Shown piece by piece: positions 1,445 to 20,324 of a DNA stretch of 64,000 bases. Position numbers and translations under genes: made by a program. The notes below the pieces were generated by a model. It did not search any database. It had not been told where the DNA came from and saw only the letters and a list, made by a program, of their open reading frames with translations. Where the stretch lies: the IMG/VR virus record IMGVR_UViG_2917886563_000007; one strand, given 5' to 3'. The DNA comes from a virus (lineage: Duplodnaviria; Heunggongvirae; Uroviricota; Caudoviricetes). The stretch's first letter is position 1; the number at the start of each line of letters is the position of its first letter.

Positions 1445-1649
1445 TTAAATCAATTAGTTACGATTAACACCCCTCTTTGTCTGCATCATGAATTTTTTCG
1501 TGTAACTGCATGTGTAAGTAATTTTCGTAAACGTACATCAACAATAGAACATCCGTATATCTGATTGGTTCAGTCTTGTTGATTTTTTCATCTTGATGAA
1601 ACGATGTTCCAGATATTGATGTCGGACATTTTTAGTGATATGCACGAAA

Positions 1650-1696
1650 TGTTAAGCTGCTATTCTTGCTTAGGCAGCAAGAATAGCAGCTTAACA
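1650..1696 (-). terminator. 21-bp-stem perfect inverted repeat hairpin downstream of the 1767..3032 gene
   Basis: tgttaagctgctattcttgc / gcaagaatagcagcttaaca arms are exact reverse complements with a 5-7 nt loop; minus-strand 3' flank has only a short U run. Confidence 0.4.
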
Positions 1697-1766
1697 GGCC
1701 TATACAGGAGGCGGTTTGGAAACGGAAAATCTAGCACATTTAGGGTGTTATTTAACCAATCCTACA

Positions 1767-3032
1767 TCAGAAATCCTTTTTCAATACCAACACACAGTAG
1801 TAAAGCGTTGTCTTGATCAGATGATTCAAGTTGTGAACTTCTCTAAATAAAAGCAGTGACTTACGAATGAATTCAATGAACGTAATTTCTTGTGCTTTCT
1901 CTCTATTCATCCCTTCTTTGAAAGGGTAATACGTGATGACCTGAGTAGACTCCTTGTACTCATATTTGTAATGGGCTATCCCGTTTCTTAGTCGATTATC
2001 AATTGCCGTTTCATCAATCTTGTAGAAGCATTTATCAATAAACTGGAGTTTGGTTCCCAGGTCGGCATCGGCAAAAGCATTCAATGAAACAGCCTCCCGG
2101 CGCGGCTCATTCCTTCTCGTCACTTTCAAAGAGGGTTCAAATTCATTGTGATCACCGCGATGCAGAAGATTGTTAAGCCCCGCCAATAAGATCAACTGCC
2201 TAGAAAACACTTCTGCTAAGTCTTTATAAAAGTTGTTACAGGTATCAAAATCTGTTGTTGAAATCCTTGCAGCAACCGGGTTGTACTCCCCCTCTTTAAC
2301 GTAGTCATAAAAGAACGTCGCGCGAAATGGCAGATCTAACTCGATGATTTTAGGGTAAAGACTAAGGCAGTCTTGATGCAGATTTTGGAGGAAATTATTT
2401 GCCAGAATCTCATCAATATAAGCGACAGTTTTGTCATGATGATGCGCGTGAAGCCATTGATAAAGACCAGGTAGTTCATTAGAAAGCTCTTCGTTTTGCT
2501 CATGAATAGTAAAAGGGGATGACATGATTGAAGTAGCTGAGTACAACGCGGCCAATACGTCTTGTTTTTTATGAGAACGCAATGTAACCCCGGGTATCTT
2601 GTTGCAGATCCCATCTAACTTATCGATGTCGCCACGTTTGTACTGGGTAATAATGCGCTGCAAGTCTCTTTGCATCGGAAGAAGGCGATTCAATACCTCA
2701 AGGCGTTGAGCAAGATGATAATATGCGTCTTCACCAAGTTCACTGACAACCCGTATGAATGTCGTTTTCCCCATTTCGTACTTGCCAAAGTAGGCAGGGA
2801 AATCTAGATGCAAATCGACAAATGGGTTTTCCCCTTTAAATGGCCCATCAAAATCAACAATGTCCTCTGCCCCTTTTAACGTTCCATCCGGATGGCCAAT
2901 AATGAAAGAAATACATTCCTCACATACCGGGCAAGCAAACTGAAATGGTTGTACTTCTCTGTTGGACATGCCAATCCTGCAATCGATCAATGTACCGCAG
3001 GTATCGCATTTGAAGCATTTGCAGATGTTCAT
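1767..3032 (-). CDS. hypothetical protein with N-terminal Cys-rich zinc ribbon and C-terminal R-x4-H (HEPN-like, Abi-like) motif
   Basis: 421-aa ORF; N-terminus CKCFKCDTCGTLIDC...CPVCEEC; near C-terminus RLRNGIAHYKYEY resembles the Rx4-6H HEPN RNase motif of AbiD/AbiF-like proteins; low-GC codon usage relative to proA. Confidence 0.5.
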   Translation of the reverse strand: MNICKCFKCDTCGTLIDCRIGMSNREVQPFQFACPVCEECISFIIGHPDGTLKGAEDIVDFDGPFKGENPFVDLHLDFPAYFGKYEMGKTTFIRVVSELGEDAYYHLAQRLEVLNRLLPMQRDLQRIITQYKRGDIDKLDGICNKIPGVTLRSHKKQDVLAALYSATSIMSSPFTIHEQNEELSNELPGLYQWLHAHHHDKTVAYIDEILANNFLQNLHQDCLSLYPKIIELDLPFRATFFYDYVKEGEYNPVAARISTTDFDTCNNFYKDLAEVFSRQLILLAGLNNLLHRGDHNEFEPSLKVTRRNEPRREAVSLNAFADADLGTKLQFIDKCFYKIDETAIDNRLRNGIAHYKYEYKESTQVITYYPFKEGMNREKAQEITFIEFIRKSLLLFREVHNLNHLIKTTLYYCVLVLKKDF

Positions 3033-3489
3033 CCTTCCTCACCTTCATCTTTCTGATTAGGCTGTAATTCTACCTTACTGCAACTATGCTTTCACGACGT
3101 GAGGCCTGACTTACCTAGGGGCGGTTTAGAGATCGAGAATTATTGTACGGTATGCCCGTTTTTGAACGGGTGGTGTTATCGCAATAGGGTGTACTCCCCC
3201 GCTATATGGCATTTGGAGTGGCTTTTCCCTAACCGGATAACCTAAACGCGATGCTGCCAAGACGATAATTTAAAACCGATAGCCACTGGCGCTAAATCAA
3301 TCCCTTATGGGCTGGTGTGGTTAAATAACGAGCTAAACATACAAGATTTTCCGTTTCCCAAACTGATCCCAATACATGTCGTTTTGTTGATTGTCGCTCT
3401 ATATGGCTGATTTTAAGATAGCCCTTCCCTGTCTACTTCCATGTGTGGTGTAATCCCTTGCGAGATTAAGGTTTCTTTCGAGAGATAGC

Positions 3490-4149
3490 ATGGAATTATT
3501 CGAAAATTATTTGTCAGCGTTACCTAAAAAAAAGCGATTGAGTGAAGTCAAGTTGACTATCCTGAAGAGATTATGGGGCTCGGATGATATTGATTTTCCT
3601 AAACCTTGGGTCTCATCAATAGAACTACTGGAACTGACAGGGCAAAAGTACTTCGATAGACGAACAAGAGAATTGCGAGATGAACTAGGCTGTGATCTCG
3701 AAAGCTCGTACATTGCGGAGTTCTCGGGGCATGCTTGGCGGCTGAAATCAAGTATGATTGCCCCACCAATGGAAAGGGAATACCTGACAGAATCACAACG
3801 ATCCGGTTTATTTTCTAACCACAGCAATACATGTGCAACATGTGGTAAAACTGTTGCAGGTGGGGTCAGGGGGCTACAAGCGGATCACAAAATACCTTTG
3901 TCACGTGGTGGTGGAAATGAGTTAACCAATTGGCAAGCTCTTTGCCACAATTGCAACGTAGGTAAGAGAAGAGCATGTGAGGGGTGTACTGATGATTGTT
4001 ACACATGCTCATGGGCATTCCCTGAAAAGTTCGGGATTACTACAATGCTCCATCTGCCAGAAGCTGCTTTAAGAAAAGCTCAGCAGCTAGCCGATGCAAA
4101 TGGGATTTCATTAGACGAAATCGTTGCCTACGCAATACGCAAGCTCTGA
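3490..4149 (+). CDS. HNH endonuclease-domain protein (candidate restriction endonuclease)
   Basis: 219-aa ORF; C-terminal HNH motif ...CATCGK...ADHKIPLSRGGGNELTNWQALCHNCNVGK...; convergent with a C5 methyltransferase gene. Confidence 0.6.
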   Translation: MELFENYLSALPKKKRLSEVKLTILKRLWGSDDIDFPKPWVSSIELLELTGQKYFDRRTRELRDELGCDLESSYIAEFSGHAWRLKSSMIAPPMEREYLTESQRSGLFSNHSNTCATCGKTVAGGVRGLQADHKIPLSRGGGNELTNWQALCHNCNVGKRRACEGCTDDCYTCSWAFPEKFGITTMLHLPEAALRKAQQLADANGISLDEIVAYAIRKL

Positions 4150-4215
4150 ATATCATTTGACTCGAGTGGTAACGCCAACTGTTGTTTTTTCATGATGTCA
4201 ACAGCTTCGAGTGCT

Positions 4216-5199
4216 TTACGGATTTGCCTTCCTGTTGCCTCGGCAACAGGGGGGGGGGAAAGCGTTACCGACTTGACGATAAGCAGCTGTTTTTTTACCA
4301 GAGAATTTCCACCAGTCGGGGAAACCTTGGATTCGTGCAGCCATTCTTACAGTCAAACGAGGCATATTTTCAAAACCAGCCCGAACCTTTCCGTCTCTTC
4401 CAACATACCCGATAAACCCCTTTTCAGGGCCATTATCCGCTATGGAATGTCCATTGACTCCAAGCGCTTGCCAGGATCTTTTGGCTCTTGTCGGGCCAAG
4501 ATCTGGCCCCCCATGCTTATGGGAACCGCCAACAAGTGTAGGAGCTATATTATCTGCTGCCTTTCTCCAGGCTTCAGCTCCTTCCCAACCTCCCATTGAC
4601 ATTAAGTCAAAGAGGGCATCACCCACAGTCGGCGGTATCAACGTTTCACTCGGCCAATGAAAATGAGCTGCATATTCACCACGCAATGCGACTAAAAGAA
4701 CACGTGGGCGAAGCTGAGGAACTCCGTAATCAGAAGCATTATGAAGTTTCCAAAAGGTCTTATAACCCATTGCAGAGAAAGCATGATCTAGTTCTTGCCG
4801 ATATTGTTTAAACTTTGGGTCTAACAAACCTGAAACATTTTCAATCATTACTGCTTTTGGCTTAATAGTGTTCACAATTTTGAGCGCTGTCGGAAACAAA
4901 TCACGTTCATCATCTTTGCCAAGTTGCTTCCCTGCTTTTGAGAATGGTGGGCAGGGCACTCCCCCTGCAACCAAGTCAACATCAGAAAAATTATATGCAG
5001 TGTGTTCAGCAAAATGCTTAACGCAACCCTCTATGATATCTCCCCAACCTAAAGAATGGAGGTTATTGTTGAGGCGAAGAGTTTCGCAGGCTGCTGGATC
5101 AATCTCGACGAGTGCGCGGTGAGCGAAGCCAGCGTTATGTAACCCTAGAGCTTGACCTCCTGCCCCTGCACAAATCTCTACAGATGTATATTGTAACAT
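4216..5199 (-). CDS. DNA (cytosine-5)-methyltransferase, C-terminal tail affected by poly-C frameshift
   Basis: 327-aa ORF with C5-MTase motifs: EICAGAGG (motif I), GGVPCPPFSKAG (PC motif IV), MIENV (ENV motif VI), GNAF near the C-terminus; run of 10 C on coding strand right after GNAF PPP. Confidence 0.8.
   Translation of the reverse strand: MLQYTSVEICAGAGGQALGLHNAGFAHRALVEIDPAACETLRLNNNLHSLGWGDIIEGCVKHFAEHTAYNFSDVDLVAGGVPCPPFSKAGKQLGKDDERDLFPTALKIVNTIKPKAVMIENVSGLLDPKFKQYRQELDHAFSAMGYKTFWKLHNASDYGVPQLRPRVLLVALRGEYAAHFHWPSETLIPPTVGDALFDLMSMGGWEGAEAWRKAADNIAPTLVGGSHKHGGPDLGPTRAKRSWQALGVNGHSIADNGPEKGFIGYVGRDGKVRAGFENMPRLTVRMAARIQGFPDWWKFSGKKTAAYRQVGNAFPPPCCRGNRKANP
4249..4258. repeat. homopolymeric G10 (C10 on coding strand) tract inside the methyltransferase 3' end
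   Basis: Counted directly: ...cggcaacaGGGGGGGGGGaaagcg...; a 9-nt tract would give the tail PPPVAEATGRQIRKALEAV..., which looks like a natural motif X tail. Confidence 0.9.
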
Positions 5200-5598
5200 G
5201 CCATTAAACCTGTATATAAAAACAGTTGTATATTTATCTGATCAGAGACCATTACGCAACAAATTGTACAAAACAAGCAGTATCGTCGCCATTGAACCGG
5301 TCAGCTTAGTTACTTGATTACTGTATGACAAGGCAATCTACTACTTTGTTTTGGAATCCTCGATTTATCAGAGGACTAAAATTCATTAGTACTATGGGCA
5401 TCATCTGGATCAGATAAGCATTGTCTAATGCTGGTTGAGTAAAATGCCTCAACTGAGCACGAAAAAAACTACTATCTGTTTACATGATGTTCTGTCCGTA
5501 TGATGTATTGCGTCCACTGTAAGTAGCGGACGCATTATGCAAGGAGTAAATAAAGAAGAAAGATTAGTGATGAAGATTGGGAATGCTGCTCGTAGAAT

Positions 5599-5940
5599 TC
5601 AGCCTCCTAGGTCACTTTGGCTTCGTCGTAACAAGCCAGTTGCCTGTCGTGCTCGCAGGATATCTACCGCTCGAAGATAGGGTGATTGTTCCCGACAGTA
5701 GAACCCTCTGCGATCGATACGAACCAGTTCGTACTTATCTACCAAGAAGTTGACTGCATCGGCCAGGGTAATTCCGGCATCAATATGTTCCTTAATAACT
5801 GTTTTATCACTGAACGGCGTGTCGTTCAGTGTCAGGCCATAGTGCTGTTCCAGCAGGCGTGTCAGTAGCATTTGCCAGACAGCTACGGGCGACAGACAGG
5901 GCTTCGCCGCCCGCGAAATTGTAGCAGGTAGAGTTTTCAT
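5599..5940 (-). CDS. CbtA/YeeV/YkfI-family toxin
   Basis: 113-aa ORF resembling the YeeV/YkfI toxin family (…[15 protein letters not shown]…[14 protein letters not shown]…[11 protein letters not shown]…). Confidence 0.75.
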
Positions 5941-5959
5941 GCTTGCTCTCGTGAATTAG

Positions 5960-6277
5960 TTAGCGTTGAGTGGGATAAACAGCGATGTATGCGTAGCCGC
6001 AACTACCAAGGGTATCGGCTTCGCAGGTGAAACCATTGTGGTACAGGTTGACGCAGTGGGCATGTCGGGGATTCAGTTCACCGGTGATCAGCATCAATTC
6101 CATCTGGCTGATAAAGTGCGGGAAAGTTTCATCCAGTTTCCGGCATTCGGCGTCACTGAACTTACCGATGATGCTGGCCCGGTCAGCCAGGTAATGCAGC
6201 CGGTTCCCCTCCTGCACAAGGCGGGCTCCCAGGCGCGGCGTGATATCCCGCTGCAGGCCCCATGTGGTGTTGCTCAT
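5960..6277 (-). CDS. CbeA/YeeU/YafW-family antitoxin
   Basis: 105-aa ORF directly upstream of the toxin; …CFGARLVQEGNRLHYLADRA…ELMLITGELNPRH… resembles YeeU-type antitoxins. Confidence 0.75.
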   Translation of the reverse strand: MSNTTWGLQRDITPRLGARLVQEGNRLHYLADRASIIGKFSDAECRKLDETFPHFISQMELMLITGELNPRHAHCVNLYHNGFTCEADTLGSCGYAYIAVYPTQR

Positions 6278-6295
6278 TTATAACCTCTTTTATTG

Positions 6296-6529
6296 TCAGT
6301 TCAGGGTGATACTCATCAGGCAGGCATACGGTCCGTTGCGGTCCTGGCGGCGTTGGGCGTATACCGCCAGCACACCGGGAATGTCAGGAACCACCTGACC
6401 GGTGTAATGACAGACGCTACCGTGCCACTGATATTTTCCGGTGCAGTAGCGAAAGATTCGGGACTCAGGATGCTGGCGGTATATCGTCATTGCCCGGCGT
6501 TTACTGATAATTTTCATGTAATACCTCAC
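6296..6529 (-). CDS. YeeT/YkfH-like DUF987 protein
   Basis: 77-aa ORF (…MKIISKRRAMTIYRQHPESRIFRYCTGKYQWHG…) resembling YeeT family; conserved position between RadC-like and antitoxin genes. Confidence 0.65.
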   Translation of the reverse strand: MRYYMKIISKRRAMTIYRQHPESRIFRYCTGKYQWHGSVCHYTGQVVPDIPGVLAVYAQRRQDRNGPYACLMSITLN

Positions 6530-7002
6530 AGCAGACCGTGTCCTGCGAACGAATAGATTTGCCTGCCACCAACAATCAGATGGTCAGGGACACGGATATC
6601 CACCAGTTGAAGTACCTGAGTCAGTCGCTGCGTGAGGGCTTTGTCAGCCTGGCTGGGCGTCGTCTCGCCGGAAGGATGGTTATGCGCCAGTATCACCGCC
6701 GCCGCATTGAAGTGCAGTGCACGTTTGACCACTTCCCGGGGATGAACCTCGGTGCGGTTAATCGTGCCACTAAAGAGCGTCTCATGGGCGATAAGCTGGT
6801 TCTGATTATCCAGATACAGCACCCGGAACTCTTCCCGCTCAAGTGCGGCCATATGCAGTCGCAACCACTCCCGAACGGCGTGAGTGGAGGTGAAGGCTAC
6901 CCCGGGCTCATGCAGATGCCGGTCCAGAATCCTGAGCGCCCGCTGAATGAGACGCCGGTCCTGTGGCGTCATCTCGCCGGGTAAAAAGGAGAGCTGTTTC
7001 AT
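6526..7002 (-). CDS. RadC-like JAB/MPN domain protein (YeeS/YkfG family)
   Basis: 158-aa ORF with HNHPSG…T-P-S-x-AD motif typical of RadC-like JAB domain. Confidence 0.8.
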   Translation of the reverse strand: MKQLSFLPGEMTPQDRRLIQRALRILDRHLHEPGVAFTSTHAVREWLRLHMAALEREEFRVLYLDNQNQLIAHETLFSGTINRTEVHPREVVKRALHFNAAAVILAHNHPSGETTPSQADKALTQRLTQVLQLVDIRVPDHLIVGGRQIYSFAGHGLL

Positions 7003-7017
7003 CCGTTGTTCCTCCGT

Positions 7018-7476
7018 TCAGTCGATGATACGCAGAATGGAGTGAGCTTCAGGATGCTGCAGGGCATAGTCCCGCAAGCGATAATAGTGTGCGGTCATTG
7101 CGTCACATTCTGTACGACAGGCGTGATGGCTGTATTCAATCAGGCAGACCGCGATACCTGCGGCTTCCACACTCATTTCCGCACCATTACCGTTCATGCT
7201 GTTGAACAGATGCCATTTATCACCACCGTCAGCATCAGGGGCCATAAACGCACCGCCATTGCTGAGCGTGTAAAAGGACCAGATACCACCGCTGTACTCA
7301 TCACAGAAGCGCTCCATCCAGCCGAAAATACGGGGTTCCAGCGTTATCCACTGCGGAATAGCGCCAAAATACAGCGGCCAGAAATCGAGGCGCTGTTCGT
7401 CAGGTACTGGTGTTGCAGTGAGGTCAAATTGAGGTTCATTAGCGGACATCAATTCGCGTTTAGTTTGTGTCGTCAT
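7018..7476 (-). CDS. antirestriction protein (KlcA/ArdB-like, YfjX/YafX family)
   Basis: 152-aa ORF; …DEQRLDFWPLYFGAIPQWITLEPRIFGWM…YRLRDYALQHPE… resembles E. coli YfjX/YafX. Confidence 0.75.
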   Translation of the reverse strand: MTTQTKRELMSANEPQFDLTATPVPDEQRLDFWPLYFGAIPQWITLEPRIFGWMERFCDEYSGGIWSFYTLSNGGAFMAPDADGGDKWHLFNSMNGNGAEMSVEAAGIAVCLIEYSHHACRTECDAMTAHYYRLRDYALQHPEAHSILRIID

Positions 7477-7561
7477 GGATATTCTCCGTCAATAAAAACG
7501 CCAGCGACGATGGCTGGCGTATGGGAAATAAAGGGCATGCAGGGATGATGAATGGGTGTGG

Positions 7562-7798
7562 TCAGGAGGAGGATGCTCTGAGGATGCCTGACTTGCGGAT
7601 ATAACGGTTAAGCCCTTCACCGGCATCAGGTTCAAAGCACCACGCCCGCCAGACCATTCGACCTTCAGAGTCTCGAACCACCAGGCGGAAGTGGCTGCAC
7701 TGGTCATCTTCAATAGCGATATTTTTATACCGGCAGGTAACCGCTTCAGCCTGCTGTCGGGTGAACGGTCCCGGTGGCAACATATGAGATTCAGACAT
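7562..7798 (-). CDS. DUF905 protein (YkfF/YfjZ-like)
   Basis: 78-aa ORF …[15 protein letters not shown]…EDDQ…HFRLV…W…FEPDAG… matching the YkfF family pattern. Confidence 0.7.
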
Positions 7799-7875
7799 TC
7801 GGTGTACCTTAAAAGCAAAAGCCCCTGACGCAGACGCGTCAGGGGCTTTGGGAGTATGCAGGTGTCGGGTGATTG

Positions 7876-8286
7876 TCAGTAACCGGTTTGTACCTTATAC
7901 AGCCGCAGGGTTTTACTGCCCCGGACAATTTTCACATACAGGGCATTATCTTTCGTGCCTCGCACAAAACCGGCCTGCACATCGCCCTTACAGTCACCAC
8001 CATCGTAAGGAATGTTGACGCCGGTCTGACGCACCAGATCAATAATCCCGAAGCTTAAGTCCTCACAGGCCGGGCCCGGCAGGTCCTGAATCAGGGCAAA
8101 TTTATGGTCGTCGCTGACACCGGTCAGTGAGCACATGGAGGTGTTGATGTCGTTTCCCTGGCACCAGTACTCCTGGCCGGGATTGTCTTTATCCATCAGG
8201 CTTGCCGGAAGTTGAGCGGCACCGGCACTGAATGCGGCAAGTGACAGAATGAGAGCGGGTACAGCAGAGGTCATTATTTTCAGCAT
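7876..8286 (-). CDS. secreted hypothetical protein (signal peptide, 4 Cys)
   Basis: 136-aa ORF with N-terminal hydrophobic signal sequence ending AAQ. Confidence 0.5.
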
Positions 8287-8352
8287 GGTTTTCTTCCTGA
8301 ATTAATCCAGCCCGCTGTCGGGCAAAATGAGGGAGGTAGGTATCGGGTGTTA

Positions 8353-8790
8353 TCAGAAGCGCCGGTAGCGAAACAGCTCTTTGCCCTGGTACAACGCCAC
8401 CAGGTCGTCATATTCCGGCTTCTTCTGGTTGGGCATAAAGGTCACTACTGTGCCCGGACGGCACAGGTCTTTTACGGTGAGACCGAACTTCTTGTCCGGA
8501 GTAATGGTGAATCCCTTCGACACATCGTTGCGCATGATAGTTATCCAGCCCCACAGGCCGCCTTCGCAGTCTTTAAAAGGTGCTGAACGCACCGTGACCA
8601 TCCCGCCCTGACGGTCAACAGACATGGCTTCGCATTTTCCGGTAACCTGACGATGCGCATCACACCAGAAAATATTCCCGTTGTTGTCATTGACGACAGC
8701 AGGTAGCGTCCGGTTATAGGGCTGGGCCTGAGCCCCTGCACAAAGCAGAAGGCTGCCGGTAATGCCCAGTATTTTAATCAGTGTTTTCAT
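8353..8790 (-). CDS. secreted hypothetical protein (signal peptide, Cys-containing), possible distant paralog of upstream gene
   Basis: 145-aa ORF with signal peptide MKTLIKILGITGSLLLCAGAQA; similar W-C…C…C spacing to neighbour. Confidence 0.5.
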   Translation of the reverse strand: MKTLIKILGITGSLLLCAGAQAQPYNRTLPAVVNDNNGNIFWCDAHRQVTGKCEAMSVDRQGGMVTVRSAPFKDCEGGLWGWITIMRNDVSKGFTITPDKKFGLTVKDLCRPGTVVTFMPNQKKPEYDDLVALYQGKELFRYRRF

Positions 8791-8830
8791 TACGTTGGTC
8801 CTTAACAGGGAAGTATCAGGTAGCGGTGAT

Positions 8831-9367
8831 TCAGGCCCATACAGTCAGTGCCAGCATCACAAGCCATACCCAGAAGTAAGCCGGTTTCTGACCGAGGTTT
8901 TTCGCCCGACGCCACAGATAGAACGGCACCAGCCAGGCCAGTTTGCCGAACGTGGCGGTGTCCACTCCGGCCTTACGCAGGCGTCGTTCATCGAGATACC
9001 CCAGAGCGATATTGAGCAGCAGCGTGATAAACCAGTACTGCCCGCCCGAGACAGCCTCATATGCCTCGTCAAAAGACATTCCGTTCAGCCCTGCAGTCCA
9101 CAGCTCGAGCGCATAACCAATGAAGGGAGCAAATGCCAGCGTCCATACCACTGCACCCGGAATGCGGTTCCCCGGCAGCGCTGGTGGTGTAGTGCTGTGG
9201 AGCAGCGCTGAAGCCAGCGGGGTGGCGGAGACCGGTTGCCAGTCTGTCATGCCCTGTCGCCACACCAGCGTGGCAGCGGTGAGTTCACCGCGCGCAATCA
9301 GGCCAGTGATGTCGTCTTCGGTCACATTGTCGTGACGTATGCCATTTTTCTCGTAATGCCAGGTCAT
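8831..9367 (-). CDS. inner-membrane protein with N-terminal GYF-like (DUF4339-like) domain
   Basis: 178-aa ORF; N-terminal W…G…W motif region followed by hydrophobic helices. Confidence 0.45.
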   Translation of the reverse strand: MTWHYEKNGIRHDNVTEDDITGLIARGELTAATLVWRQGMTDWQPVSATPLASALLHSTTPPALPGNRIPGAVVWTLAFAPFIGYALELWTAGLNGMSFDEAYEAVSGGQYWFITLLLNIALGYLDERRLRKAGVDTATFGKLAWLVPFYLWRRAKNLGQKPAYFWVWLVMLALTVWA

Positions 9368-9392
9368 TGTTTTTCCTTCTTAACAGAGGTAA

Positions 9393-10103
9393 TTAAATCA
9401 GTGTGTTGCCCTGCTCCTCCTCAGAGGGCCCAGGAGACAGGACTTCACGAATACAGCTGAAGTGCGGAAGAGCCCGGATAAAGCCCGCCTGTGTGGTTAA
9501 CTGGCTGAGACGTTTTCGCGGGGTAAAAGTGGTGTTCAGGACTGTCACCGCATGGATGGTCGCCAGAGGGTGCACGGTGATATGCCCGTTAAGTTCACCA
9601 GTGAGGTACCAGCAGCCGTCGAGTGATATCAGGCGGTACGGGGCCAGCCCGTCACAGCGCTCTCCCTCGGCCAGCAGCAGTACCCGCTTGCAGGCGGTAA
9701 TGGCACTGACAAGACGGTAGAACACCAGTGAGATGGACGGTGATATAGTCTGTGGCGGCTGCCACACCAGGCACGGCATCCCTCCTGCAGTGAGCAGCAT
9801 GCCCGCCAGACGCCGGTCCAGCCCCGGAAAAATATCGGCCAGTCCGGCCCGGTGCGCGAAGGTCAGCGCATCGAGCTCGCCCTGTACGCCCCCACCGGTG
9901 CTACGCAGGCGGCATTGCCCCCGTCGATACTCAAGGTCGAGGTACAGCAGCCGTTCACGAAAATCCCGTCGCAGGGTACGGACTGACACACCAAACTCTG
10001 CAGCAAGTCGCGTCATGTTCAGCGTTTCACCGGCAACCAGGCGGCTGATTATCAGTGACAGCCTGACAGCCAGCCGGTCGTGACGGCGCTCTGCCTGTGT
10101 CAT
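9393..10103 (-). CDS. HTH-WYL domain transcriptional regulator (YfjR-like)
   Basis: 236-aa ORF; N-terminal HTH (…LNMTRLAAEFGVSVRTLRRD…) and C-terminal WYL-type region (…LISLDGCWYLTGE…). Confidence 0.65.
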   Translation of the reverse strand: MTQAERRHDRLAVRLSLIISRLVAGETLNMTRLAAEFGVSVRTLRRDFRERLLYLDLEYRRGQCRLRSTGGGVQGELDALTFAHRAGLADIFPGLDRRLAGMLLTAGGMPCLVWQPPQTISPSISLVFYRLVSAITACKRVLLLAEGERCDGLAPYRLISLDGCWYLTGELNGHITVHPLATIHAVTVLNTTFTPRKRLSQLTTQAGFIRALPHFSCIREVLSPGPSEEEQGNTLI

Positions 10104-10311
10104 CTCGAATCTCCGTAATAATTAACTGACTGAATATGAAATGATTCTAAAGAGGGGGGCGGACAGGGTATGGACACGGAATGAACTATTTTTTCTCTGC
10201 CACCGGAGGCAGGCCCGACGCGGCACACCGTGAAATACGGTGATAAAACACTCAATCCAATGGTGGTAAAACGGACAGGGAGTGTCCTTTCCCAACATAC
10301 TGATAACAAGC

Positions 10312-12093: not shown

Positions 12094-12367
12094 CTCAACT
12101 CCGCTGAAAAGTAAAACATAAAACGGTAAAACCAAATGGTTTTACCGTTTAAAAGGAAATGTTCAGGGGAATGATATATATCTTAATGTTTTTAGAATGG
12201 ATTCATATATGATGTTGATCTTATTCAAGATATCCTAGAGTATCATTCTGTTGATAACATATTGAATTTGGTTAAAATAATTGAGCCTGATATCCCTTTT
12301 TACTGAATTTCAAGAGGTATTGGGTTGTGTTCGTTCGCCCAATTCTATTGATGACAAGGAAAAGCAA

Positions 12368-15300
12368 ATGGTTAGTAGCCAGTATCCCCGGGGTTCAGAA
12401 TGGCATAAGTGGGATTTACATATTCACACTCCAGCATCTTTTCATTGGAATGGCCCGAGATTTAAGTCAGATCCACGCTCACCAGAGAACGCCCCACTAG
12501 TGGATGCAATGATCAATGCTATGAATGCAGCAGAACCAATCGCATTTGCGATTATGGATTATTGGACCTTTGATGGATGGTTTGCGTTAAAACATCGATT
12601 GACGCAAGAAGATGCCCCCAAGCTAGAAAAAACCGTTTTTCCTGGAATTGAATTGCGGTTGATGGCGCCAATGCGTGGAAGGCTAAATGCTCACGTTCTT
12701 TTTTCTGATCATATACCAGATCAGGAGCTTATTGATTTCAAGAGTAAACTAGAGGTTGCTCTAATAAATAAGTCATTATCAGATTCAGCCTTAATCCAAA
12801 TAGCTAGGGAGGCTGCACCAGATAAATTGCGGCATCATAGTCTCAACCAACAAAAGATTCTTCAATCTGATGCTGATGCTCTCAAGGCTGGTTCAATAAT
12901 AGCCGAGGTTACATGTGAGAGTTATCAAAAAGCAATTAACAGTGTCAGCAAAAATCAAGCTATTGGGTACATGCCATTTGATACCAATGATGGGCTTACT
13001 GAAATTGAGCGTAACGCGCATTATGCATTCGCATTAACTCTTTTCAAGACATCACCAATATTTGAAACAAGGGATTATGCTACGTGGGCAGCTTTCGCTG
13101 GTGTAAAGGTCCCTGAAAATGAAAGGTGGTTTGATGCTTTTCAAAAGGCTTTAAATAATAAACCTAGACTTGCTATTTCAGGGAGTGATGCTCACTGCTT
13201 TGTTGGAGAACCTGGTAACAATGATCGCCGAGGATATGGTGACTACCCTTCAGGAAAGGCAACATGGATAAAGGCTAATCCAACATTTGACGGATTAATG
13301 CAAGCAATAAGAGAACCAGCAAAACGTTCATTTATTGGTGCTATTCCTAAAAAACGGAAATTAGTAAGCGAAAACAGAAGTCTATTTATTGAAAAGCTAG
13401 AAGTTAAAAAATCAATTGATTCATCAATCAATGAATCCTGGCTCGACAATACGGATATACATTTAAATCACGATTTAGTCGCTATTATTGGTAATAAAGG
13501 TAGTGGTAAAAGTGCATTGGCTGATATTGCAGCGTTGCTTGGTAACTCTAAACAAAGTCATCATTTTTCCTTCCTAAAGGAAAATCGATTTAGAGGAAAA
13601 ACAGGTGAGCCAGCACGTCACTTCAATGCAAAAATAGTATGGAGTGATGAAAAAGAGTTAACAAAAAACCTTAATGATAATCCAGCAACTGAAAATGTTG
13701 AATTAATAAAATACATTCCACAAGGCCATTTTGAAGAGTTGTGTAATGCTCATGTATCGGGCCAATCAGATGCATTTGAAAAAGAACTAAGATCTGTAAT
13801 CTTCTCACATGCAGATGAATCTATACGCTTAGGTGCTCATGATTTTGAAGATCTGATAGAAAAGCAGGAGAGCTCTCTTCGAAGCCAACTAGAAAGCTAT
13901 CGTAGTGAGATGCATAAACTCAATGAACAAGTAATGTTTATTGAGAGCCAAATGACCGATGAAGCAAAAAAAGCACTTGATGAAATGTTGGCTCAAAAAG
14001 TTAGATTACTGGAAGAGTTGATCAAAGCAAAGCCAGAAGAAGTTCCTGAACCATCTAATGAGCTTACACAGGAACAACAACAAATATCTGAACAGCTATC
14101 AAACATCAATCAAGAATTAGAAAAGTTACAGAAGCAGCAAGAATCAGACCTAGAAGAACTTACAAAGTTAGCCGGAAAGAGAAAAGCAAGCAAGAATATT
14201 AAGGCTGGTTTTGAAATCGTCAAACGTGCAGTTAATCAATTTGTGTCAGAGTTTGATTCAGATGCTAAACTCCTTGGTTTGGATATAGAGAGTTTAGTTA
14301 GAGTTGATGTTGATGAAAAAACTCTCTCTGCATTAGACGATGCTGGTTCACTTCGTGAAAAAGAAATCAAAGAACGTCAATTAACCCAAGTGGCTAGTAA
14401 ACAATTAATTTTGGAGAAAAAAGCTCCACTAAATGCACAGTTGAATGCCCCACAACAAGCATACCAGTTGTTTAAAGAACAGCTCAAAGCTTGGGGTGAG
14501 AAACATGCAGCATTATTAGGAAACAAAGATGATCCAGATACACTCGAAGGTATCAAGCATAGAATATCTAAACTGGAGCAACTTCCAAGTCAACGATTAG
14601 AATTACATGAGAAACGAAACGATTTGACTCGAAAAATTTTTACAATTCTTAATGAGCAAAAAGAGAATCGTGAAACCCTTTTCGAACCAGTACAATCACT
14701 TATTCAAAATAATATTCTTATCCGTGATGAATACAAACTACAATTTAGAGCTGAACTAAGTAGCACTGCAGATCTAATTTCAAATAGATTATTTTCCATT
14801 GTTAAGCAAGCGTCGGGTGAATTTAGGGGCGAATCAGAGAGTCTTTCAGTAATTAAAGACCTTATGGATCGACATGATTTAAATGACCAAGAATCTTTAC
14901 TCATGTTTGTCCAGGAATTGCACAGAAAACTAGAGAGTTCTTCTAAGAATCCAGTTGGTGTAGCTTCATTGTTACGCAAAGATCGTACAGCTAATGAAGT
15001 TTATGACCTTATTTTTGGCTTAGAGTACCTTGAGCCAAGATATACATTAATGTTTCAAGATGCTCAAATAGGACAATTGTCTCCTGGACAAAGAGGGGCC
15101 TTACTTCTGATTTTCTATCTGCTTGTGGATAAAGGAAATACACCAATAATTCTGGACCAGCCTGAAGAGAATCTTGACAATGAAACTATTGTTAGCCTGC
15201 TTGTACCTGTTTTAACGGAAGCAAAGCAAAAACGACAGATTATTATGGTTACACATAATCCGAATCTTGCAGTTGTTTGTGATGCAGAGCAAATTATCCA

Positions 15301-15442
15301 TTGTGAGTTTGATCGCACAAAGGGGCACAAAATAACATATACCCCAGGAGCTATTGAGTGTAGCGTAATTAATAACAAAGTGGTTGATGTTCTTGAAGGA
15401 ACTATGCCTGCATTTGATAATCGTAGAATGAAGTATATGTGA
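12368..15442 (+). CDS. PHP-domain nuclease fused to SMC/Rad50-like ABC ATPase with long coiled coil (Ppl-like candidate antiphage protein)
   Basis: ORF 12281..15442 (1053 aa); best start ATG 12368 after AAGGAAAAG RBS. N-term PHP motifs (WDLHIHTP…, …SGSDAH…), Walker A IIGNKGSGKS, about 450-aa coiled-coil region rich in E/K/Q/L, C-terminal Walker B/D-loop ILDQPEENLD and H-loop MVTHNP. Confidence 0.7.
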   Translation: MVSSQYPRGSEWHKWDLHIHTPASFHWNGPRFKSDPRSPENAPLVDAMINAMNAAEPIAFAIMDYWTFDGWFALKHRLTQEDAPKLEKTVFPGIELRLMAPMRGRLNAHVLFSDHIPDQELIDFKSKLEVALINKSLSDSALIQIAREAAPDKLRHHSLNQQKILQSDADALKAGSIIAEVTCESYQKAINSVSKNQAIGYMPFDTNDGLTEIERNAHYAFALTLFKTSPIFETRDYATWAAFAGVKVPENERWFDAFQKALNNKPRLAISGSDAHCFVGEPGNNDRRGYGDYPSGKATWIKANPTFDGLMQAIREPAKRSFIGAIPKKRKLVSENRSLFIEKLEVKKSIDSSINESWLDNTDIHLNHDLVAIIGNKGSGKSALADIAALLGNSKQSHHFSFLKENRFRGKTGEPARHFNAKIVWSDEKELTKNLNDNPATENVELIKYIPQGHFEELCNAHVSGQSDAFEKELRSVIFSHADESIRLGAHDFEDLIEKQESSLRSQLESYRSEMHKLNEQVMFIESQMTDEAKKALDEMLAQKVRLLEELIKAKPEEVPEPSNELTQEQQQISEQLSNINQELEKLQKQQESDLEELTKLAGKRKASKNIKAGFEIVKRAVNQFVSEFDSDAKLLGLDIESLVRVDVDEKTLSALDDAGSLREKEIKERQLTQVASKQLILEKKAPLNAQLNAPQQAYQLFKEQLKAWGEKHAALLGNKDDPDTLEGIKHRISKLEQLPSQRLELHEKRNDLTRKIFTILNEQKENRETLFEPVQSLIQNNILIRDEYKLQFRAELSSTADLISNRLFSIVKQASGEFRGESESLSVIKDLMDRHDLNDQESLLMFVQELHRKLESSSKNPVGVASLLRKDRTANEVYDLIFGLEYLEPRYTLMFQDAQIGQLSPGQRGALLLIFYLLVDKGNTPIILDQPEENLDNETIVSLLVPVLTEAKQKRQIIMVTHNPNLAVVCDAEQIIHCEFDRTKGHKITYTPGAIECSVINNKVVDVLEGTMPAFDNRRMKYM

Positions 15443-15455
15443 TGTTTGCATAAAA

Positions 15456-15492
15456 CTGCCCATCTATAAGTTTTAGATGGGCAGTTTCTTTC
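15456..15492 (+). terminator. Rho-independent terminator after the PHP-ATPase gene
   Basis: ctgcccatcta…tagatgggcag stem followed by tttctttc. Confidence 0.7.
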
Positions 15493-15623
15493 GAAGTTAC
15501 CGGGGGCACATTGGCAGTGCGATAAATCAATAATATCTTTTATGATATTCGGATTTATATTATGGAATGATATAAGTGCTTATAAACTTTTACTGGAATT
15601 TAATGGGGTTGTATTATAACCAA

Positions 15624-16244
15624 CTACCCTCGACTGCATCCGAAATTTCTGTCACCTTCACCAAATATTTTTGTATCTAACTTGGTTAAATAGTCTAGAC
15701 GGGTGAGAAGGTCGTTATACACAATGTCAAAATCCGGATCGTTAACATTCAATACATATCTACAATTCTCCGGGAAATGAACCAGATTCCTGCAATCCTC
15801 AGGTTCAAGATTAAGAGCACTATACCATGCTCTAGTTATCATATTAGTGAGCGTACCGCTATGTTCATGATGACCCAAGTGATAGTAAGCATCTTTATTG
15901 AAAAATAGACAAGTGTGAAAATGACATTTTCCACTCTGCGTGTATTCCCTTGCCCAGAGTTGGCGTATTGAATTTGGTTTTATTCTAATCCCAGCGCATA
16001 CTCTACGGTTTTCACTAGCAGCTAATATAGCTTTTAATGAATTTATAAAGCGAGATATTGCTCCAGGTTCAAGATTATGAAAACAACAAACTGTGTCGCC
16101 ATTATCAAGGATTTTCGGATAATGAAGATCAACCCTTAACGCCATAGTTTTGGAGAATTGATGAATAGCATTGTTAATCACGGTAGCAATATTGTCTCTA
16201 TAAGAGATGATATGATTGCCATGAGTACCATTATAGATTTTCAT
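15624..16244 (-). CDS. YagK/YfjJ-family protein
   Basis: 206-aa ORF with features of YagK/YfjJ family typical of CP4 islands; Cys/His-rich (…CCFHNLEPG…, …CHFHTCLFF…). Confidence 0.55.
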   Translation of the reverse strand: MKIYNGTHGNHIISYRDNIATVINNAIHQFSKTMALRVDLHYPKILDNGDTVCCFHNLEPGAISRFINSLKAILAASENRRVCAGIRIKPNSIRQLWAREYTQSGKCHFHTCLFFNKDAYYHLGHHEHSGTLTNMITRAWYSALNLEPEDCRNLVHFPENCRYVLNVNDPDFDIVYNDLLTRLDYLTKLDTKIFGEGDRNFGCSRG

Positions 16245-16466
16245 AATAATAAGACCATAGTTGCTCTTATCTTAAATAAGAGCATGTTGATTAATATCTT
16301 TTCTATAGAGCAAATGAATTAATGTTTTGGCAATCACATACAACACTTCTATTAGTTATCAATAGAAACGACAATATATTACCTTTCCACCACCATTTAC
16401 CTATATCAGGTCTGTTCCAGCCTAAAGATTACGAGTGCAATTCGCTCTGCATTTAGCTTTGTACTT

Positions 16467-17912
16467 TTACACGATGTATTGTGTGCTGATAGATTGCATA
16501 TAGTCTATATCAGGACCGATATATAAAGATCTTCCACGTTTAGCTATTCTGATTTTTCCTTGCTGAACTAAAATTTCCAATAAACCATCTGCGACTTTCT
16601 TTCTTCTCAATCGATTAGGTCCAAAGGAGTAAATTAACACTTTGTTAAAATAAATTATGGAGTTGTCTTCGCAATATTTTATAACCCAGTTAAATAATTC
16701 TTCAGAATCAACTTGTTCCTCTTTTTTATCTAGGAGCTTAGGAGGTGAAAATATACGGATATATTCATCTGTAAACCAAAGTGTAATTTCAATTGCTGCC
16801 TCTATGGCTTCTAAAGAAATATCACCTTCCCCATGGTTAAAATAAAATAGAAGTGCTGATATTCTTGCTGCATTTTCTGCAATTTTAGAAGCATAATCTT
16901 TGATGTCAGAAAATAATCCAAATCCAAGCATCCCCATTTCGGACTCTACTTGATTATGAAATTGTATCCATCTTTCTTGTGCTTCCGGAGAAAAGTAGAG
17001 GCAGGTCCGTTTGCTGTTTTTATTTGATGCAATGTTTGTCTTAATAATCTCCATTAATCTCTTATGAAACAATGGAAGATGTTCATTTGAAGTGACTGGG
17101 TTAGTTATTGTTCTGTAACCTTGTTTCGAGTGAGGTTGACAAATCAAAAATCGATTGAATATCCCAATTCCCTTTGCTATATCACCTTTATTTTTAATAT
17201 ATCTGCTAATAACGCTAGGTTGCGCCATCAATCCTGCTGTTAGGGTTGCATTTTTAATTAATCTATCCGGTTCATTCTTTCTTTGCAGTGTGTATGTAGA
17301 ACCATCCCACATTTTGTTGAGGAAGGGTAAGTCACCTAGGATATAGCCATTAAATACAGTTCCTGCTTCATCAGAAAAAATTCCGACAGAACGCCAATGA
17401 CCGGAAAGATAATCTTTTAAAGCAGCGGGTGTCGCGTCATTAAATATCATCCTATATTTTATTGGTTCTTCTGGGTAAGAAGAAAGAAGTTCTTCAAGTC
17501 TTTTACGATGCTCAGAAATATCTCTATTGCAGCGAATGTCTGACTTGATTTTTGCTATAATTAATTTCTTTTCAATATCTATTATTTCAATTGTGTTTTT
17601 GTATGATAGCATTTCATTTAGATGCTTTTCAAATAACAATTCTTCAAATTCATATATCGGGTTAAATATTTGTTTGTAAACACCTGTTTTCCTTTCTCCA
17701 GAATCGGCGATTGTCAACAAATATAATGATGCAGGGCCAGTAATGTTATTTATCCTACATACATCTATACTATTCTGACAGGCTAAAGAAATGGCACTTA
17801 GTATAGCTGAAGAAATCAATGATAGTGGGGCTTGAGTATGCTGTTCTACTTCATAGACAGCATTTCTGGCTAGTGAGGGCAGCGTGTGTACAGGGAAATT
17901 TTTATCTAACAT
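16467..17912 (-). CDS. DUF3987-like protein (YfjI family; primase/helicase-associated)
   Basis: 481-aa ORF in the position and size of YfjI-like genes upstream of AlpA and integrase in P4-type islands; low-GC. Confidence 0.5.
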   Translation of the reverse strand: MLDKNFPVHTLPSLARNAVYEVEQHTQAPLSLISSAILSAISLACQNSIDVCRINNITGPASLYLLTIADSGERKTGVYKQIFNPIYEFEELLFEKHLNEMLSYKNTIEIIDIEKKLIIAKIKSDIRCNRDISEHRKRLEELLSSYPEEPIKYRMIFNDATPAALKDYLSGHWRSVGIFSDEAGTVFNGYILGDLPFLNKMWDGSTYTLQRKNEPDRLIKNATLTAGLMAQPSVISRYIKNKGDIAKGIGIFNRFLICQPHSKQGYRTITNPVTSNEHLPLFHKRLMEIIKTNIASNKNSKRTCLYFSPEAQERWIQFHNQVESEMGMLGFGLFSDIKDYASKIAENAARISALLFYFNHGEGDISLEAIEAAIEITLWFTDEYIRIFSPPKLLDKKEEQVDSEELFNWVIKYCEDNSIIYFNKVLIYSFGPNRLRRKKVADGLLEILVQQGKIRIAKRGRSLYIGPDIDYMQSISTQYIV

Positions 17913-17924
17913 AATAACCTCCTT

Positions 17925-18161
17925 TCATCGTTTTTCTTCAGAAGCGAAGAGAGTGTGGATATAGCTTTGAACGTCATCCCAGAGCCAGTAGTTTTTTTTG
18001 TTAATTTTTTTTGGTCTTACCAAACCAGATGGTAATTGATCTTGGCACAACCATTTTCTGATTGTTTGCGGTTTACAATTCAACAGTTGTGCTAAATCAT
18101 TAGTAGAAACAAGTCGGATGTTGCTTGGAGATGATGCTTCACTTATTTGAAATTTGCTCAT
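17925..18161 (-). CDS. AlpA-family transcriptional regulator / excisionase
   Basis: 78-aa ORF; HTH …LVSTNDLAQLLNCKPQTIRKW… typical AlpA/phage excisionase. Confidence 0.7.
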   Translation of the reverse strand: MSKFQISEASSPSNIRLVSTNDLAQLLNCKPQTIRKWLCQDQLPSGLVRPKKINKKNYWLWDDVQSYIHTLFASEEKR

Positions 18162-18634
18162 GATGCCACCCCGGAGATAAAAACGTGGGCAAATGAAGCA
18201 ATAGGTAGGACGCAGGCTTTGTTTAAGAGATAGGAGGCGTTTAAGGAAAGGATAGAGAATAAGGAGGATGATCTGAGTACACTTGCAGGCTCGGGATCAC
18301 CACCTTCACTTGAACCGGTGGAAAAAGATCCCTTTGCTGACTTGGTGCTACTACGATGCGCTCTCGAGGTATGAGTTTTAAATGGCACTGAACGAGAAAT
18401 CACGTTAGCTAAAGCAATTTTGCATGCCTTGTTTCGTACATTTTTCCGATAAATAGCCTGATCCATTACATGAAGGGCGACTTTCTTATAGTGGTTTTTA
18501 AACCATTGCTCAATGGGGAGTCCATTAGATGATGGTGAATGGTATTGGATTTCAAAATTGATCTCGGGCAGTCCAAGCAGATTCGCCAGAATCTCTTGAC
18601 TATCATCTAACACGGGGTTGTAACTATTAAACAT
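18158..18634 (-). CDS. hypothetical protein
   Basis: 158-aa ORF overlapping AlpA start by 4 nt; no recognised motif. Confidence 0.35.
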   Translation of the reverse strand: MFNSYNPVLDDSQEILANLLGLPEINFEIQYHSPSSNGLPIEQWFKNHYKKVALHVMDQAIYRKNVRNKACKIALANVISRSVPFKTHTSRAHRSSTKSAKGSFSTGSSEGGDPEPASVLRSSSLFSILSLNASYLLNKACVLPIASFAHVFISGVAS

Positions 18635-18762
18635 TCTGATATTTCTCCTCTAGGGTCGTGAACTAATGAGGCGATTTTTATCCAAGTTTCAATATCTGTC
18701 AATAACTCTTTTATTTTTCAGGGTTAATGTAACATATTGATATTTAATGAAATCAACGCGTA

Positions 18763-20160
18763 TCAACACTCGATTTTTTCATAAATAGAGGCCTGTTCTA
18801 AGATCCAGCTCTCAATTTTTTCATGCCATTTACGCAACAAATCTAATGGACGACGACGGTAGTGTTTCTCAGCTAGAGCACTAGGTTTATGGCCCATAAT
18901 CTGCGCAACTATGCCAGTTGGCACTTCGACCCATTCGGCGAGCGTACCAAAACTACGACGTAATCCATGCAGGCTGATGTGTGGTAATTCAGCCTTAGCT
19001 AAGGCCCGATTGTGTGCGGAACGCGGTTCAATAATTTTGCCGCTTTTGCTATTACTCCTGAAAACCCAATCCTCCTTATTTACGTCAGAATTTGGTGTTT
19101 GCACCAATGCGCGTAACAGGTGAGTGACATAAGGAGTAAGAGGTATGATACGTTCGCCTTCGATCTTGTCTTTAATCCGCATACTTGACCATTTGAAATC
19201 GACGTCAGACCACCGAAGTGACGCAATTTCTTCGCGTCGCGCTCCGGTGAGTAAAAGTACCTGGAGATAGGCCGATGCAATGGGATTGTTGAGGTTACGC
19301 ACGGCACTGAACCAGCTTTTTAACTGTTCTTTTTGTAAGCAATCTCCCGCTTTACTCGCTGATACTGGAACCAATTTTCTCACGTTATGATCTTGTGCAA
19401 GATCGCCATGGATTATTCCCTGATATTTTTTCTGGTAATTAACCCATTTGATAAATGCACGCAACAGACGGTAGGCATGAGCAGTGACGGTAGGCCGATT
19501 TTGTCTTTCTGTACTTAGCCATGCGGCAATGTTCTCTGGTGTTAGTTCCGATAACGGTAGGTCGAGCAAGCTAGCCAATGGTCCAGCCGAGGTTGGGCCC
19601 CGGCCTCTTTTTTTACTTTCTCCTCCACGGCTGGACAAGTTCACGTGATCGGCAATATAACGTGCAGAGTAAGGACGTTTAGTTTTTGCGCTGATTCCGG
19701 TTCTCAATTCTTGAAGATAATCTTCCCAAGCGCTTGAGAAGGTTACCTTCGTTTTACGAGATTCAGCCTGCTGTGATTCCGCTTCAGCAATTTTTTCTGC
19801 TTTAGCTATACGCGGATCTATCCCAGTATCGATTAATGTTTGCAGCCGCCTGGCTTCGGCCCTGGCATCATCAATCCTCCAATCGTTAATGTTGCCAATG
19901 GTCATGCGAAGGGTTTTTCCCGCATATACGCTTTGGAACACAAAAGCTTTTGTTCCGCGAGTTGCCCGGCATGCCAGAGTTGTTACATCCGCATCCCAAA
20001 GAAATGCTTGGTTTTTCCCTTCAGTTAAAGCAAATTTTCGAATACGCTCGAAGGTGAGTTTTTGTCTCGGAAGTGCCATTTTTGGGCTCCAGATGAGAAA
20101 GGTTACATCACCATAATGTAACGGCTGGTGTAAGTAAATTAGGGGAATACACATCAACAC
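18763..20160 (-). CDS. tyrosine integrase (P4/IntF-like)
   Basis: 465-aa ORF (alternative start at 20079, MALPRQK); C-terminal catalytic residues …HGLRRSF…IMGHK…Y…; adjacent to the tRNA-derived repeat. Confidence 0.85.
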   Translation of the reverse strand: MLMCIPLIYLHQPLHYGDVTFLIWSPKMALPRQKLTFERIRKFALTEGKNQAFLWDADVTTLACRATRGTKAFVFQSVYAGKTLRMTIGNINDWRIDDARAEARRLQTLIDTGIDPRIAKAEKIAEAESQQAESRKTKVTFSSAWEDYLQELRTGISAKTKRPYSARYIADHVNLSSRGGESKKRGRGPTSAGPLASLLDLPLSELTPENIAAWLSTERQNRPTVTAHAYRLLRAFIKWVNYQKKYQGIIHGDLAQDHNVRKLVPVSASKAGDCLQKEQLKSWFSAVRNLNNPIASAYLQVLLLTGARREEIASLRWSDVDFKWSSMRIKDKIEGERIIPLTPYVTHLLRALVQTPNSDVNKEDWVFRSNSKSGKIIEPRSAHNRALAKAELPHISLHGLRRSFGTLAEWVEVPTGIVAQIMGHKPSALAEKHYRRRPLDLLRKWHEKIESWILEQASIYEKIEC

Positions 20161-20261
20161 CTGTCAATTTTTATCAACAGGTGTGTTTTATAAGTTAATG
20201 TTTTATAATGAACTAATTGTTTTAAGAGTAGGTTTTTAAAGGGGTAAAAGTATAATAACGT

Positions 20262-20310
20262 CGCATTCGTAATGCGAAGGTCGTAGGTTCGACTCCTATT
20301 ATCGGCACCA
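20262..20310 (+). repeat. 49-bp direct repeat of thrW 3' end (att core; pseudo-tRNA)
   Basis: cgcattcgtaatgcgaaggtcgtaggttcgactcctattatcggcacca identical to 1396-1444; flanking approx 20 bp also similar (t(c)taaatcaat(a/t)agttac). Confidence 0.9.
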
Positions 20311-20324
20311 TCTAAATCAATAAG

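Follow-up and report, generated by a model that had tools for sequence, protein, structure and literature searches.

What lies between two copies of the 3' end of the tRNA gene thrW, set 18.8 kb apart near the start of a sequence filed as viral, and how did the second copy come to be there? The sequence is IMG/VR record IMGVR_UViG_2917886563_000007, a stretch of 64,000 nt (the window, always meant at its full length) whose first bases lie at the proA start codon. A preliminary description made from its letters had proposed a thrW-anchored island, delimited by the repeat, with an integrase at its distal end, and had called it a cargo-swapped variant of a known island type. Comparison with Escherichia coli K-12 and E. 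coli ET245 bears this out; what the description did not see is that beyond 20310 lies a second mobile element, a lambdoid prophage, with which the right-hand copy is shared. By its sequence, the interval 1445-20261 is a CP4-6 / IntF-family thrW island with a new combination of cargo. Its integration at thrW by site-specific recombination, in tandem with the prophage, is very probably the correct account and best explains the locus as a whole. Knowledge of CP4-6 goes back to the K-12 genome, and the island type is very common and well described.

The repeat, its flanks and the integrase

The argument turns on the following features (att, attachment site; P and P', the two arms of an element; B', the chromosomal right arm; int, integrase gene; ORF, open reading frame; aa, amino acids):

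1369-1444, plus strand: thrW, an intact tRNA-Thr(CGT), the sole tRNA in the window (ARAGORN), with an Rfam tRNA match of 71.8 bits
1445-1609, no strand: non-coding island P' arm on the thrW side, opening with TTAAATCAATTAGTTACG
18763-20160, minus strand: IntF-type (P4-family) tyrosine integrase, 465 aa, intact, with Pfam domains Arm-DNA-bind_3 and Phage_integrase
20161-20261, no strand: island P arm, from int to the identity block, containing TGTTTTATAA twice
20262-20310, plus strand: partial thrW copy, a hybrid junction with the island P arm as its left flank and the phage P' arm as its right flank
20311 to past the window end (64000), no strand: lambdoid prophage, from ORFs and Pfam
20325-21488, minus strand: prophage integrase, 387 aa, starting 15 bp after the partial thrW copy

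The window's thrW is identical to that of K-12 at 76/76 nt, and the attL identity block is made up of its final 49 nt (1396-1444), which run from tRNA position 28, on the 5' side of the anticodon stem, to the CCA end. As had been claimed, this block recurs exactly at 20262-20310; the identity in fact extends by one T, 1396-1445 matching 20262-20311. A search with a 25-nt core, allowing up to 3 mismatches, finds it at these two places only, with no third copy inside the window and an expectation of 0 in 100 shuffles. The roughly 20 bp of similar flank that had also been described are real, if imperfect: past the CCA, about 18 bp are alike (TTAAATCAATTAGTTAC against TCTAAATCAATAAGTTAC) with one indel and one mismatch. 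Some version of the motif T-AAATCAA-nn-GTTAC occurs in all thrW 3' flanks, and the likeness is imperfect because the three kinds of DNA that can follow thrW, chromosome, island arm and phage arm, each carry their own version of it.

The arms were assigned by comparing the junctions with those of genomes that hold a single element, which gives:

chromosomal right arm (B'): TTAAAATCAAAGAGTTACCCC...
island arm beside int (P): ...GGGGTAAAAGTATAATAAC(G/T)T
island arm beside thrW (P'): TTAAATCAATTAGTTACG..., in which the thrW 3'-flank motif takes its island form
phage P arm: ...GCGGATTCTTAT(A/G), the identity block then being 46 bp
phage P' arm: T(C/T/A)TAAATCAATAAGTTACACATCA...

These arms show what the repeat delimits. 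The left flank of the copy at 20262 is the int-proximal arm of the thrW island of ET245, the last 36 nt of the island P arm matching the ET245 attR arm at 35/36 positions, and positions 1-1609 of the window are collinear with ET245 at 93.7% identity. To the right of 20310, the phage P' arm is the sequence that follows an intact thrW in E. coli AR_0061, save two substitutions. The middle copy, on this comparison, serves the island as attR and the prophage as attL. Strand exchange must fall within 1399-1445, because this stretch is common to all partners.

Within the P arm, the two TGTTTTATAA units form a 10-bp direct repeat (20184-20208, spaced 15 bp), and CAATTAGTT of the P' arm (1451-1459) recurs inverted in the P arm (20211-20219) as a 9-bp match. 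We do not claim arm-type integrase sites here, one 10-bp repeat and one 9-bp inverted match being too short and weak, although the TGTTTTATAA repeats may bind the integrase.

The integrase had been placed at the far end of the island beside the partial copy, in the geometry of CP4-6, and this is where it lies: 101 bp from the partial copy and transcribed away from it. It is 89% identical to K-12 IntF and 95% to the ET245 integrase, and its residues R308, H398, R401, H424 and Y434 align with the catalytic residues of XerD. In K-12 the order is likewise thrW on the plus strand, intF on the minus strand, then the partial tRNA. When species-representative genomes were scanned with the integrase, eight loci at 86% identity or more were found, none of them above 95% (in Citrobacter, Scandinavium, Kluyvera, Enterobacter, E. 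coli and one mislabelled metagenome-assembled genome); each of the eight has a thrW 3' fragment on the strand opposite to int and 120-150 bp upstream of it, and in none is a full tRNA found there. Integrases at 55% identity or less come without the fragment.

Alignment to an empty thrW site had been suggested as a check. The MG1655 annotation has CP4-6 beginning 49 nt before the end of thrW and stopping just past intF, with yagP-paoD next. When the K-12 sequence to the left of CP4-6 (proA-thrW) was joined to that to the right of the partial copy, the resulting 800-bp query equalled the empty site of ATCC 8739 at 800/800 positions, and other strains also matched at 100% in a single piece; thrW is unoccupied in 948 of 5426 complete E. 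coli genomes. This test holds for the family, the right neighbour of the window's own island being another element. Because empty sites exist and the geometry of int and fragment is conserved, we read the repeat as the att identity block of a site-specific element and not as part of a larger duplication.

The proposed recombination at thrW and its alternatives

In the mechanism that we propose, the tyrosine recombinase would join two partners, thrW itself and the island attP, in which 49 bp would reproduce the end of thrW from anticodon stem to CCA. Integration would rebuild an intact tRNA at the left (attL), since the incoming element supplies a 3' part of its own, and would leave the 49-bp partial copy at the right (attR) beside int. 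A lambdoid phage with an unrelated integrase (no similarity between the two integrases is detectable by BLASTP) would have inserted immediately beside the island, the middle copy becoming common to both. For the island to leave by itself, 1396-1444 would have to recombine with 20262-20310; the excised attP would read ...GGGGTAAAAGTATAATAACGT + 49-bp block + TTAAATCAATTAGTTACGATT... and the scar thrW + TCTAAATCAATAAGTTACACATC....

The island backbone would supply the integration and excision functions (Int and an AlpA-like regulator or excisionase), next to a putative replication module with a helicase-like YfjI and a Rep-like YagK, and a presumed CP4 block for maintenance and anti-restriction (CbtA/CbeA, RadC, an antirestriction protein, DUF932 and a GTPase). 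Exchangeable defence-like cargo would occupy two slots, one holding a restriction-modification pair and a 421-aa HEPN-like gene, the other a TrlF/Ppl-like PHP-ATPase.

The prophage could by itself seem to account for the second copy. Its integrase begins only 15 bp away, and the same integrase end lies directly against an intact thrW in 77 E. coli genomes, as would be expected if the copy were prophage attL and nothing else, the 18.8 kb to its left being chromosomal or degenerate DNA. We consider this very improbable: the block has the island length of 49 bp and not the 46 bp of phage attR sites, the 36 nt to its left match the island attR arm of ET245, where the phage is absent, the interval has its own intact IntF orthologue in the position typical of the family, and ET245 and K-12 have the same 49-bp repeat around an island that stands alone. 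A larger duplication, which the preliminary description had named as the finding that would overturn it, or chance or a recombinational artefact, has next to no probability. The 18 bp of imperfect likeness beyond the tRNA end could be taken for the trace of such an event, but the right-hand motif is shared by every thrW 3' flank, be it chromosomal, island or phage, the left-hand identity stops abruptly at tRNA position 28, island and prophage have no further similarity, and precise empty sites exist.

Closer to our reading, and of some weight although we think it unlikely, is the idea that the island did integrate site-specifically and is now a fixed, immobile relic held between thrW and the prophage and kept for its cargo. 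CP4 elements are classed as cryptic, and a 1.8-kb insertion about 165 bp into the P' arm could disturb arm-type sites. The island ORFs were compared with Pfam, PADLOC, NCBIfam and PHROGs, 20 of them with Pfam and 10 of these also with PHROGs, and the Pfam and PHROGs comparisons gave no capsid, conjugation or transfer genes. Against a relic stand the integrase, both identity blocks and both proximal arms, all intact. Moreover, the much more decayed CP4-6 of K-12 still excises, in 1-27 per 100,000 cells (PMC3105296), and variants of the island at the same site in five genera require recent mobility of the family.

Site-specific integration in tandem with the prophage thus remains the reading that we prefer, and several points weigh against it or against parts of it. 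We infer that this copy of the island could excise today; likewise, the 78-aa AlpA-like protein may control excision, as excisionase or regulator, its match to the excisionase family being weak (1e-4, PHROG). The start codon of the integrase is ambiguous (GTG at 20160, or Met27), and the int-proximal module has diverged from both K-12 and ET245 (YfjI 26-62% identity, YagK 34-57%). Arrival of the island first and arrival of the phage first predict the same junctions. Finally, the cargo looks like anti-phage defence genes, a role read for all three units from family resemblance.

The tandem array and its neighbours

The lambdoid prophage also targets thrW, using a 46-bp version of the block. Beyond the window, the array was read on the source contig, PDHX01000024.1 of Escherichia sp. 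E4736 (assembly GCA_004745245.1), which matches the window over 5,066 bp and is identical there. No other genome has the exact ProA protein of the window; proA and thrW together are 95.7% identical to those of E. coli, and a cryptic-clade Escherichia would fit as the host. A third thrW copy lies at 65,934-65,982 in window-extended coordinates, 1,934 bp past the window end, where the phage P arm followed by the 46-bp block forms the prophage attR and sets the prophage length at about 45.6 kb. An earlier prediction from E. coli NCTC9041 and GDSC2BY4G, which put this copy about 500 bp past the window end, had its position wrong.

After the third copy comes the P' arm of a third type of element and not the chromosome (region ~65,934-73,900). 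This arm is 99% identical over 806 bp to the element at thrW in E. coli c1-17; in E4736 the element bears an IS3-family insertion and a 4.6-kb segment inverted relative to c1-17. The c1-17 element has its own integrase gene at its far end, beside yagP'-paoD, and none was seen in the ~8 kb read in E4736. On these comparisons the E4736 thrW locus is at least a triple tandem array, with copies at 1396-1444, 20262-20310 and 65,934-65,982 and with internal junctions at which the P arm of an element meets the P' arm of its successor.

The reverse order also exists. In E. coli isolate 12 (NZ_CM194533.1, locus 3869-19914) thrW is followed by a phage remnant, a hybrid junction and a CP4-6-type island, the junction being phage P arm + 46 bp + island P' arm, the mirror of that in the window; independent integration into whichever copy is available predicts that both stacking orders should occur. 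Tandem integration at thrW was shown in the laboratory with the Shigella flexneri phages SfX and SfI (PMC3306764), which similarly gave two thrW-core elements head-to-tail with a hybrid att site between them. Those are both related serotype-converting phages whose order was set experimentally (PMC3306764), whereas the present array brings together an island that is not a phage, a lambdoid prophage and a third element, with a different kind of integrase for each.

In itself the island is of little consequence: thrW is a heavily used hotspot in E. coli and its relatives, and tandem occupancy has already been shown by experiment. thrW is among the most used tRNA-gene (tDNA) hotspots (PMC7545054), and similarly variable thrW loci are found in E. 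albertii (PMC11878020). As a worked example the locus is nevertheless a clean one: a single stretch of 46-49 bp in one tRNA gene is the target of three unrelated integrases, whose elements lie stacked there, and each junction of the array can be resolved into one element's P arm and the next one's P' arm. What is added here is the tandem context, the resolved att arms and an inventory of the cargo.

Relatives, gene content and cargo

Traits of a CP4-6 / IntF-type island found here are insertion at a tRNA 3' end, a flanking IntF orthologue and the backbone in conserved order, the last by comparison with K-12, ET245 and E. coli isolate 12. K-12 CP4-6 shares the thrW attB, the 49-bp identity block and the genes ykfI-yafW-ykfH-ykfG-yafX-ykfF...yafZ-ykfA and yagK...ykgV-yagN-intF in the same order; by tblastn the ykfI-ykfA backbone is 77-97% identical to K-12 and 81-97% to ET245, again in the same order. 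The genes of the window's island, whose GC content forms a mosaic (0.43-0.46 in the first 5 kb, 0.52-0.59 in the backbone and 0.33-0.41 at 12-19 kb), are as follows. The CP4 backbone block (5599-12135, all on the minus strand) was delimited with Pfam, PHROGs and tblastn, and four genes (15624-18634, minus strand) make up the int-proximal replication/excision module.

1767-3032, minus strand: 421-aa protein, no family model
3490-4149, plus strand: HNH endonuclease (Pfam HNH 9e-11; PADLOC REase_II 5e-21)
4216-5199, minus strand: C5 cytosine methyltransferase (Pfam DNA_methylase 2e-65; PADLOC MTase_II 5e-112)
5599-5940, minus strand: cbtA-like toxin
5960-6277, minus strand: cbeA-like antitoxin
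6296-6529, minus strand: ykfH-like (DUF987)
6526-7002, minus strand: RadC/JAB
7018-7476, minus strand: antirestriction protein
7562-7798, minus strand: ykfF-like (DUF905-like)
7876-8286 and 8353-8790, minus strand: two PHROG-8968 proteins
8831-9367, minus strand: GYF_2
9393-10103, minus strand: DeoR
10312-11184, minus strand: DUF932 (yafZ-like)
11230-12135, minus strand: GTPase (ykfA-like)
12368-15442, plus strand: TrlF-family PHP + ABC/SMC-like ATPase, 1024 aa (NCBIfam TrlF_fam_ATP 678 bits, cut-off 350)
15624-16244, minus strand: YagK/YfjJ (Pfam YagK_YfjJ_C 3e-53)
16467-17912, minus strand: YfjI, DUF3987, helicase-like (Pfam DUF3987 1e-88; PHROG 'DNA helicase' 3e-79)
17925-18161, minus strand: AlpA-like, 78 aa (PHROG excisionase/regulator 1e-4)
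18158-18634, minus strand: yagN-like

A further ORF at 4192-4599 (plus strand) was treated as spurious; it overlaps the methylase gene and has no family match.

The differences from K-12 are those of a swapped cargo. The island measures 18.8 kb here against 34.3 kb for CP4-6, is without insertion sequence (IS) elements and without the argF, xylonate and mmuPM cargo, has the YfjI (DUF3987) gene in place of yagL/yagM and differs in its P arm sequence. The cargo next to thrW had been said to differ from that of K-12, and it does: ykfI directly follows thrW there, whereas here the 421-aa gene and the HNH/C5-methylase pair intervene before the toxin gene. The closest relative found is the thrW island of ET245 (NZ_CP100978.1, 3,608,5xx-3,628,8xx), which has the same P and P' arms, the same backbone, the 95% identical Int and the HNH/C5-methylase pair at 97-99% aa identity. 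The ET245 island is without the 1.8-kb insertion that carries the 421-aa gene, shows no more than 26-58% identity to the window in its YagK/YfjI/AlpA module, and borders on the chromosome (yagP'-paoD) at its right, where the window's island has the prophage.

Some features recall satellite phage P4: an Arm-DNA-bind_3 P4-family integrase, attachment to the 3' end of a tRNA gene, a small protein that may be an AlpA-like regulator and, beside int, a replication gene of helicase-like type. When checked one by one, the integrase and the DUF3987 'DNA helicase' are present and the AlpA-like match is the weak one (1e-4) given above. In the Pfam and PHROGs comparisons of the island ORFs no primase domain was detected, nor were Psu, Sid, Delta or cos-related functions, and the island has no DNA likeness to the adjacent prophage, cos or other, beyond the att block. 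Because these comparisons found no psu/sid/delta-like genes and the prophage has no DNA in common with the island, we would not class the latter among the P4-like satellites.

Cargo occupies two slots, one proximal to thrW and one between the GTPase gene and yagK. The locus shows that CP4-type islands have two defined cargo slots, with defence-like genes in this genome and in ET245. In the first slot, the convergent HNH and C5-methylase genes match, as a pair, type II restriction-modification models. The central slot holds the TrlF-family ATPase here, perR...argF in K-12 and a multiubiquitin/ThiF/DUF6527 cluster with other genes in ET245. The TrlF-family gene is a low-GC insert (0.36-0.40). 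Its product is assigned to the TrlF family and not to Ppl, because it matches the TrlF model over its full length, passes the TrlF equivalog cut-off and reaches only 76 bits with NCBIfam Ppl_antiphage, whose cut-off is 1000; PADLOC Ppl matches its C-terminus (1.6e-18). A DLHIHT motif typical of PHP domains was read by eye at the N-terminus, where Pfam does not call a PHP domain. The exact protein sequence is known from Escherichia sp. E4736 alone, and Enterobacter ludwigii and Yokenella have copies that are nearly identical; a literature search on 'TrlF' returned spectroscopy papers only.

The one part of the island with the potential to open a new line is the uncharacterised gene for the 421-aa HEPN-like protein. 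It is carried by a discrete 1.8-kb insertion (1610-3401), absent from ET245, and also occurs in other elements across Gammaproteobacteria. The protein matches no Pfam, NCBIfam or PADLOC model, yet 315 homologues, none of them named, are spread over Gammaproteobacteria at 50-96% identity; in Proteus prophages the gene stands by itself on the opposite strand, flanked by the Q antiterminator and the lysis genes. Its AlphaFold model is confident (pLDDT 89, pTM 0.90) and found no match in the Protein Data Bank (PDB) with Foldseek. The protein has a zinc-ribbon-like N-terminus, a helical body and a HEPN-like fold, and R349-N-x-I-A-H354 (Rx4H) is invariant in 35 homologues. That it is a HEPN-type RNase acting in abortive infection is reasonable but unproven. 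We propose, tentatively and as something that may well turn out otherwise, that the island acts as a mobile carrier whose anti-phage genes can be exchanged and that the 421-aa protein founds an undescribed single-gene abortive-infection system. Just downstream of the gene, near the left edge of the insertion, a perfect inverted repeat with a 21-bp stem (1650-1696; TGTTAAGCTGCTATTCTTGCT...AGCAAGAATAGCAGCTTAACA) is probably its terminator.

The neighbouring prophage carries exo, bet, a CI-like repressor, O/P replication genes, Q, terminase, portal, a lambda-type tail and tail fibres. Its attR-proximal cargo comprises a LysR regulator, an alcohol dehydrogenase (ADH) and two small genes. The LysR regulator and the zinc-dependent ADH are complete (61883-63927, plus strand) and lie between the tail-fibre genes and attR, in the position that gtrABC holds in serotype-converting thrW phages; the same pair is found at the same position in E. 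coli NCTC9041 and GDSC2BY4G. Tandem repeats of 21 nt (7 aa) and of 189 nt (58042-58521, plus strand) fall within the gene for a 791-aa side tail fibre, and Rfam matches at 30277-30463 and 35028-35420 (plus strand) correspond to isrK, C4 antisense RNA and a cspA-type thermoregulator leader.

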